A stretch of DNA of 64,000 nucleotides from Escherichia coli (GCF_002854065.1 NZ_CP024147.1); one strand, 5' to 3'; shown: positions 45,435 through 45,692, numbered from the stretch's first letter. A program made the numbers and translations. The notes: generated from the sequence alone by a model not told the origin.

Positions 45435-45692
45435 TTAACGCGGAGAAATCCCGTAATGTGCAATGCAGCGCCAGCCACCATCCTGCTGACAATAAACTGA
45501 TTCCGTATGCCCAGGGATCACCCATTGAATTTCCTCGCCAGGCGGACAGGTCAGCCAAATGCATAACCCGCAGCCGCCGCGTAAATCACGGGGAATATCG
45601 CTGACGCGAAAAGTCATGCCCGCTGCCTGCAACGCCTTGCGGGTTTGTATGACGCCGACCGTGGAGTGAAATAAAAACAGATACTCTTTCAT
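45435..45692 (-). CDS. Small conserved hypothetical protein translationally coupled to yjiL
   Basis: 85 aa; start overlaps the yjiL stop (ATGA); contains a CGLC motif. Confidence 0.5.

Follow-up and report, generated by a model that had tools for sequence, protein, structure and literature searches.

What is the small open reading frame that follows yjiM and yjiL in Escherichia coli, and what can it tell us about the job of its two larger neighbours? We addressed these questions in a 64,000-nt stretch of E. coli DNA (NZ_CP024147.1; hereafter the window, positions 1..64000), in which the frame lies on the minus strand at 45435..45692 and encodes 85 aa followed by a TAA stop. An earlier note, made from the sequence alone, had described an 85-aa ORF that begins in an ATGA overlap at the yjiL stop and contains a CGLC motif. 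ORF and overlap are read directly from the sequence, and the motif is there as well (codons 41-44, TGC GGG TTA TGC).

The ytiA gene and its surroundings

The frame is an already known, catalogued gene. It appears in our ORF list, as a Pfam match and in RefSeq, where it is named ytiA and its product is called "DUF3343 domain-containing protein" or "putative Se/S carrier protein" (WP_000666413.1 for the allele of this window, WP_000657675.1 for that of K-12 MG1655). Swiss-Prot holds the K-12 allele as YTIA_ECOLI, "Uncharacterized protein YtiA". The earlier suggestion that the gene is easily missed in annotation is thus contradicted by its entries in both databases, for K-12 and, in RefSeq, for other E. 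coli. It can still be overlooked, since a paper on a Providencia IncC plasmid names an MFS transporter, yjiL and yjiM as Klebsiella-derived genes and leaves the DUF3343 gene unnamed, while the plasmid records do carry it. Klebsiella-type yjiL together with the DUF3343 gene, with or without a full yjiM, occurs on Klebsiella and Providencia plasmids; the matches include a 141.6-kb Providencia stuartii IncC plasmid (H29/H30) and further plasmids (H26, H28). In E. coli itself, DNA of the ytiA locus was matched by megablast in 5385 of 5426 complete genomes.

YtiA matches the Pfam family PF11823 (Se_S_carrier, formerly DUF3343) with E=5e-14 and 52 bits against a gathering score of 25. The match covers residues 3-59 (45516..45686, minus strand), which align to profile positions 1-57 of 69, and the stand-alone 85-aa protein has the size of the family (~70-100 aa). 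An NCBIfam search returned no model for YtiA. Compared with the K-12 allele, to which it is 94% identical in nucleotides, ytiA shows a dN/dS of 0.15; the values for yjiL, yjiM and yjiK are 0.22, 0.06 and 0.18. By this measure ytiA is under purifying selection. Differences in its first 60 codons fall in the order position 3 > 1 > 2 in a comparison with Klebsiella, Kosakonia, Atlantibacter and two more distant homologues. We found 142 homologues at E<=1e-3 across the Enterobacteriaceae (Escherichia, Citrobacter, Klebsiella, Raoultella, Kosakonia, Phytobacter, Atlantibacter), and an alignment of 28 of the YtiA homologues shows a near-invariant stretch of 45 N-terminal residues and a variable C-terminal tail. 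The reading frame, on whose conservation across species the note had let its case depend, is kept. Taken together, the Pfam match, the 142 homologues, the dN/dS of 0.15 and the codon-position pattern make ytiA far more than a chance ORF.

The junction with yjiL is tight. Plus-strand positions 45689-45692 read 'tcat', that is, ATGA on the minus strand (45689..45692), so that the ytiA start (ATG, 45692-45690) and the yjiL stop (TGA, 45691-45689) lie within a 4-nt overlap, implying that translation of ytiA is probably coupled to that of yjiL. Upstream in the operon, yjiM and yjiL are separated by 9 nt. The equivalent ATPase-DUF3343 junction is ATGA in K. pneumoniae and Atlantibacter as in E. coli, TAATG in Kosakonia and ATGATG in a more distant metagenomic contig (L003); in Yokenella and Cedecea the two genes overlap by 1 nt, judging from their coordinates. 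Across species the overlap with the upstream gene is thus kept, with one exception: in a second such contig (L008) an 18-nt gap with a strong Shine-Dalgarno sequence separates the two genes.

The ytiA start in E. coli is preceded by a weak Shine-Dalgarno match (GAGA, 8 nt upstream), and our literature searches brought up neither a direct detection of YtiA protein nor ribosome footprints on its gene; what they gave for E. coli ytiA was limited to B. subtilis ytiA, which is an L31 paralogue, and to peptide strings. YjiM protein has been detected in proteomics. The weak Shine-Dalgarno match and the lack of direct expression data in these searches would fit a spurious ORF, or an unrelated hitch-hiker with no functional tie to yjiLM. 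We give this almost no credence: the Pfam match, the purifying selection, and a frame and coupling conserved across genera and phyla all speak against it, and the conservation data effectively refute it.

Downstream, ytiA is separated from yjiK by a 64-nt spacer (45371..45434, minus strand) without a terminator-like or promoter-like site, and yjiK may be co-transcribed with ytiA in E. coli. The spacer follows from the RefSeq start of yjiK, a GTG at 45370 that gives a 286-aa protein (VTKSISL...). The longest ORF (44510..45481, minus strand, 323 aa) instead starts with an ATG at 45481 and shares 47 nt with the 3' end of ytiA; this form would be an over-extension. yjiK is absent downstream of the cassette in Klebsiella, Kosakonia, Atlantibacter, Yokenella, Cedecea and the two metagenomic contigs (L003, L008); judged by gene order, it is an E. 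coli-specific neighbour outside the conserved module. A promoter and terminator scan around the operon gave nothing informative, Rfam returned no family at gathering score anywhere in the window, and a search for a phage link of the ytiA locus found none.

Several rearrangements touch this region. In ~600 E. coli genomes the match to the window ends within the last ~15 codons of ytiA. E. coli O145:H28 12E115 (L094, locus 1012-3711) encodes an 88-aa YtiA with a different tail (...QGSDWQCVVHYDAEASTRQ), followed by a gene for a 706-aa pentapeptide-repeat protein and, beyond it, a different SdiA-regulated-domain gene; the exchange of both tail and downstream DNA points to a recombination breakpoint within the variable 3' tail of ytiA. 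In E. coli FCI1 (L095, locus 3136-6258) an IS50R insertion splits ytiA and yjiM has an internal stop, so that two genes of one cassette have decayed together. Farther away, downstream of mdtM (window ~50600..52000, located from L102 10602-12000), lie a frameshifted IS1 transposase gene and a BrnT/BrnA toxin-antitoxin pair; this copy of IS1 accounts for the numerous additional BLAST hits on chromosomes and plasmids. Strain 720632 carries the same IS1/BrnTA block on the other side of the locus, where it truncates yjiJ. At the protein level, the 90%-identity cluster of K-12 YtiA also holds 255-aa YjiL sequences and has a 255-aa representative. Presumably the mixture is an artefact that arose in clustering from the gene overlap, or from fused or frameshifted calls; the proteins P0126, P0140 and P0145 join YjiL and YtiA parts.

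The conserved yjiM-yjiL-ytiA cassette

What YtiA might do depends on its two neighbours. YjiL (45689..46456, minus strand; annotated in RefSeq) is a BcrAD_BadFG-family protein (Pfam E=7e-75; TIGR00241, 358 bits) and so provides the adjacent activator of that family, the ATPase or "archerase", for YjiM (46466..47617, minus strand). YjiM scores 531 bits against the NCBIfam model NF040772, "double-cubane-cluster-containing anaerobic reductase" (cutoff 350). Over the aligned region it is 39% identical to the solved double-cubane protein (DCCP) of Carboxydothermus (6ENO, E=4.5e-75), and nine cysteines are shared without exception by DCCP_Ch and the YjiM-type sequences of our alignment, among them those at the positions of the published cluster motif. 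The YjiM cysteine spacings (X18, X18, X29, X164, X30, X30) are near but not identical to the published 7-Cys string. We considered whether this literal mismatch removes YjiM from the DCCPs and rejected the idea, as all of the cysteines are conserved relative to the solved protein; on the alignment, the mismatch is a difference in spacing. By homology, YjiM is a double-cubane [8Fe-9S] cluster reductase and YjiL its ATPase. A review of the family places YjiM in "class II", which lacks the channel-closing N-terminal helices and for which a bulkier substrate is plausible, and regards YjiL as its ATP-dependent electron-energising partner (PMC7317905). The [8Fe-9S] cluster and its ATP-dependent reduction have been shown only for the Carboxydothermus enzyme, which is active in vitro with its ATPase only (PMC7317905).

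This assignment bears on the earlier view of the operon as 2-hydroxyacyl-CoA dehydratase-like, under which YtiA would join YjiM and YjiL as third subunit of a dehydratase-type enzyme with a CoA ester as its substrate. YjiM does belong to Pfam HGD-D and YjiL to the activase family, and the same review names a CoA ester or another large molecule as a possible YjiM substrate (PMC7317905). The dehydratase subunit models, however, score far below their cutoffs on YjiM (HadC, the best, 93 bits against 700; HadB 19 bits against 750), compared with 531 bits for NF040772. All enterobacterial loci have one HGD-D gene per cassette and no alpha/beta pair; no CoA-transferase or acyl-CoA genes are found in the conserved cassette, and known dehydratases, such as the alpha/beta enzyme 3o3m, have no DUF3343 subunit. 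The dehydratase label is outdated, and we regard a dehydratase subunit as a very improbable identity for YtiA.

The order of an HGD-D-type gene (383-385 aa), a BcrAD_BadFG ATPase gene (254-259 aa) and a DUF3343 gene recurs in eight independent contexts: E. coli, K. pneumoniae, Kosakonia, Atlantibacter hermannii, Yokenella, Cedecea and the contigs L003 and L008. The last two are metagenomic contigs of more distant gammaproteobacteria, and their DUF3343 proteins share 37-38% identity with YtiA. For Yokenella and Cedecea the search started from YjiM, which frees these two of any bias from searching with YtiA. All enterobacterial genomes that we examined have the three genes together. The flanks change from nearly every context to the next, with the Atlantibacter cassette in an unrelated neighbourhood, and in E. 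coli O145:H28 the cassette is intact although the downstream DNA has been replaced. From this synteny, yjiM-yjiL-ytiA is the conserved unit, and ytiA is almost certainly a real gene and a functional member of it. The note's central proposal, that ytiA is a genuine third member of the yjiL-yjiM unit, is borne out by a coupled cassette that persists while its flanks change.

DUF3343 genes at double-cubane loci in other phyla

To see how far this association extends, we scanned one genome per species (GTDB) with an alignment led by the Carboxydothermus DCCP. The scan gave 80 DCCP loci from Firmicutes, Chloroflexi, Deltaproteobacteria, Nitrospirae, Actinobacteria and Bathyarchaeota, and a DUF3343 HMM was run on all of their ORFs. 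A DUF3343 (PF11823) gene was present in 15 of the 80, within about 1 kb in 12 of them, compared with a chance expectation of ~0.1 close adjacencies (our own rough estimate, from a few family copies per 3-4 Mb genome). Pfam's own PF11823 model was re-checked at 10 of the 15 loci and gave 69-88 bits in all. In eight of the 15 the gene sits between the DCCP and ATPase genes (two Tepidibacter loci, Clostridium thailandense, two Tissierellia, a Clostridia MAG, Dorea and Claveliimonas), and three (two Chloroflexi and one unclassified MAG) have it immediately before the DCCP gene, 0-600 bp upstream; one further copy is 1 kb downstream of the ATPase gene and three are 3.5-4.5 kb off. The ATPases of the eight between-genes loci score 168-242 bits to YjiL, against a typical 130-165 elsewhere. 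The flanks of the other 65 loci contained no DUF3343 gene, and a relaxed HMM search of these loci (E up to 5) uncovered no further members; TGA-encoded (selenocysteine) forms were sought in all 80 loci and none was found. The 65 loci mark the small protein as an accessory of a subset rather than a universal component; given these loci and an enzyme from Carboxydothermus that needs only its ATPase, a carrier would not be obligatory for double-cubane chemistry.

Several Clostridia have two different double-cubane reductases, one Carboxydothermus-like (~425-430 aa) and one YjiM-like (~383-396 aa), arranged around one ATPase gene and one DUF3343 gene (L066 7809-11350; L049 7803-11271; L048 3592-7711; L081 4946-10160). 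All four loci with a second, close YjiM-like DCCP (>430 bits to YjiM) carry a DUF3343 gene. This arrangement suggests that in such Clostridia one ATPase and one putative carrier may serve two reductases.

The loci with DUF3343 also stand out by a second kind of neighbour. A class-V aminotransferase (desulfurase-like) gene is found in 8/15 DUF3343-positive and 3/65 DUF3343-negative DCCP loci (Fisher p=2.8e-5). The two aminotransferases that were scanned (L066, L081) belong to the TIGR01977 cysteine desulfurase family with 438-444 bits and score 384-393 bits against the SclA selenocysteine-lyase model. In three loci (L024, L026, L064) overlapping genes follow the order desulfurase-DUF3343-DCCP-ATPase. 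In L066 and L081 the order is desulfurase-DCCP-DUF3343-ATPase with a YjiM-like DCCP gene nearby, after the ATPase gene in L066 and upstream on the opposite strand in L081; a gene for a rhodanese-domain protein follows in L066. DUF3343 relatives without a DCCP adjoin a TusA/DsrE fusion, or YedE with a desulfurase and a LysR regulator, and another such relative overlaps a desulfurase gene. In the E. coli cassette we found no desulfurase, YedE/YedF or selD neighbour.

Published comparative genomics points the same way. Lin et al. 2015 (PMC5322559) put forward a Se/S chaperone role for DUF3343 and pointed out its conserved Cys; their STRING table for Slackia links DUF3343, without comment, to a "CoA-substrate-specific enzyme activase" and an HGD-D subunit, and also to Sec lyase and YedF. 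Kayrouz et al. (bioRxiv 10.1101/2022.04.13.486033) list duf3343 among the top five genes overlapping selD. Haft reported that 955/970 strong NF040772 proteins come from SelD-containing assemblies and discussed the selenium connection, with DUF3343 unmentioned; the DCCP cofactor itself might explain the SelD link, and a Se atom in the cluster was named as a formal possibility. Our literature searches turned up no paper that states a DUF3343-DCCP partnership explicitly and no experimental work on the DUF3343 family, whose mentions were computational or incidental.

Given these associations, we lean towards YtiA being a sulfur or selenium carrier that works with YjiM and YjiL. We weighed this against a role in maturation, in which YtiA would deliver to YjiM the bridging sulfide (or Se) that joins two [4Fe-4S] cubanes into the [8Fe-9S] cluster and would have no part in turnover. 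The conserved DUF3343-DCCP synteny is compatible with such a role, the desulfurase-DUF3343-DCCP order resembles that of Fe-S assembly operons, and Haft's remark on the cofactor and SelD is in line with it. Against it, 65/80 DCCP loci have no DUF3343 gene, and many DUF3343 genes without a DCCP lie near selD, yedF, yedE and desulfurases, which indicates a more general trafficking role; moreover, tight 1:1 translational coupling fits a working partner better than an assembly factor. We consider a maturation factor unlikely.

The invariant cysteine and a putative carrier role

The carrier reading places the chemistry of YtiA on Cys41, the first cysteine of the CGLC motif (45561..45572, minus strand; Cys41 at 45570-45572, Cys44 at 45561-45563). 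Cys41 is invariant in two alignments, of 28 close and 63 diverse family sequences, and across the 63 diverse members it and Pro34 are the only invariant residues. A second cysteine near Cys41 is variable: the 63 members have CxxC (38/63), CC (6/63) or the single cysteine (19/63), with the CC form typical of Clostridial DCCP-linked DUF3343 genes. A CCG motif occurs in seven of the eight Firmicutes DUF3343 proteins encoded between DCCP and ATPase genes (L027, L038, L049, L060, L066, L072, L081), the eighth (L048) having a single Cys; enterobacterial and many other members have CGxC instead.

The AF2 model of YtiA (pLDDT 89.6, residues 31-40 being the least confident part of the folded core) predicts a ferredoxin-like fold, beta-alpha-beta-beta-alpha-beta-beta, with Cys41 in an exposed glycine-rich loop between strands 2 and 3. 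A search of solved structures gave chance-level matches only for the YtiA sequence (E>=0.05) and nothing for the family profile. The best Foldseek matches were PII/GlnK signalling proteins, with Cys41 at the position of their T-loop. This, together with the CGLC conserved in enterobacterial YtiA and the CxxC of 38/63 members, could be read as a small redox or regulatory subunit, which would act by dithiol-disulfide cycling or by PII-like gating of YjiL/YjiM and carry no S or Se. However, the similarity to PII is weak (E>=0.014, TM about 0.5), Cys41 is the only invariant cysteine and 19/63 members have no other, and the recurrent desulfurase, TusA, YedE and selD neighbours favour atom transfer over signalling. 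A purely redox or regulatory YtiA thus appears improbable to us.

How might a carrier work here? As translation of ytiA is coupled to that of yjiL through the ATGA overlap, YtiA would be made together with YjiM and YjiL. Cys41 would take up a S or Se atom as a persulfide or perselenide; alternatively, a selenotrisulfide could form between Cys41 and a nearby second cysteine. The atom would come from a cysteine desulfurase or selenocysteine lyase, a role that in E. coli would fall to a housekeeping enzyme with its gene outside the cassette. YtiA would then present the atom to YjiM, and YjiM, receiving low-potential electrons from YjiL at the expense of ATP, would either reduce it or pass it on; the whole module would form an ATP-driven step of anaerobic S/Se trafficking. 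The carrier chemistry, the direction of transfer and the specificity for S or Se are what we infer from gene context, and any particular direction is less secure than the carrier reading. It is also not obvious why persulfide reduction should need ATP-energised electrons, which counts against the carrier reading.

A broader version can be put forward only tentatively, and we think it has somewhat less than an even chance of being right: a large subset of double-cubane reductases may have its missing physiological partner in DUF3343 proteins such as YtiA, which desulfurases or Sec lyases would load. The reductase would act on a protein-bound atom, for example to release selenide for SelD or to insert S or Se into a product or into its own cluster. 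If true, this partnership ties together two selenium links from comparative genomics, that of DCCP with SelD and that of DUF3343 with SelD, YedF and Sec lyase, and E. coli yjiM-yjiL-ytiA gains a role in anaerobic selenium or sulfur trafficking.

By itself ytiA is an ordinary gene, and its value lies in its genomic context. A putative S/Se carrier as the fixed, coupled third gene of the enterobacterial cassette is a testable clue to the job of YjiM and YjiL, and DUF3343 recurs beside double-cubane reductases in Firmicutes, Chloroflexi and Nitrospirota-type genomes, together with desulfurase- or Sec-lyase-like genes. With this context the hypotheses narrow to chemistry on protein-bound sulfur or selenium, for which E. 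coli offers a genetically tractable organism.

Several known systems resemble this cassette in part. Within the DUF3343/PF11823 family, YtiA has the usual size and the invariant Cys in its P-x-P-R-x-L-x-x-x-C-G context, and like many members it is translationally coupled to a neighbour. The enterobacterial subfamily differs in having its own conserved N-terminus and variable C-terminal tail, and in that ytiA is not found beside selD, yedE/yedF or a selenocysteine lyase gene but consistently follows the genes of a double-cubane reductase and its ATPase. The DCCP/DCCP-R pair of Carboxydothermus hydrogenoformans (6ENO, 7YYL; Jeoung and Dobbek) is homologous to YjiM and the adjacent YjiL. That characterised system has two components, and the 97% identical locus of Carboxydothermus islandicus (L014) has no DUF3343 gene, whereas the E. 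coli-type cassette adds a small cysteine protein as its third gene and its reductase, as a class II protein, lacks the N-terminal channel-closing extension. HgdAB/HgdC and HadBC/HadI share the superfamilies of the large subunit and the ATPase with YjiM and YjiL, but they are alpha/beta heterodimers with [4Fe-4S] clusters that act on CoA esters and have no DUF3343 partner. Finally, the persulfide relay proteins SufE/CsdE and TusA are small and have a single domain, with their one essential cysteine exposed on a loop, as is predicted for YtiA; their genes lie beside, and are often coupled with, those of class-V aminotransferase desulfurases, as is the DUF3343 gene in L024, L026, L064 and L012.
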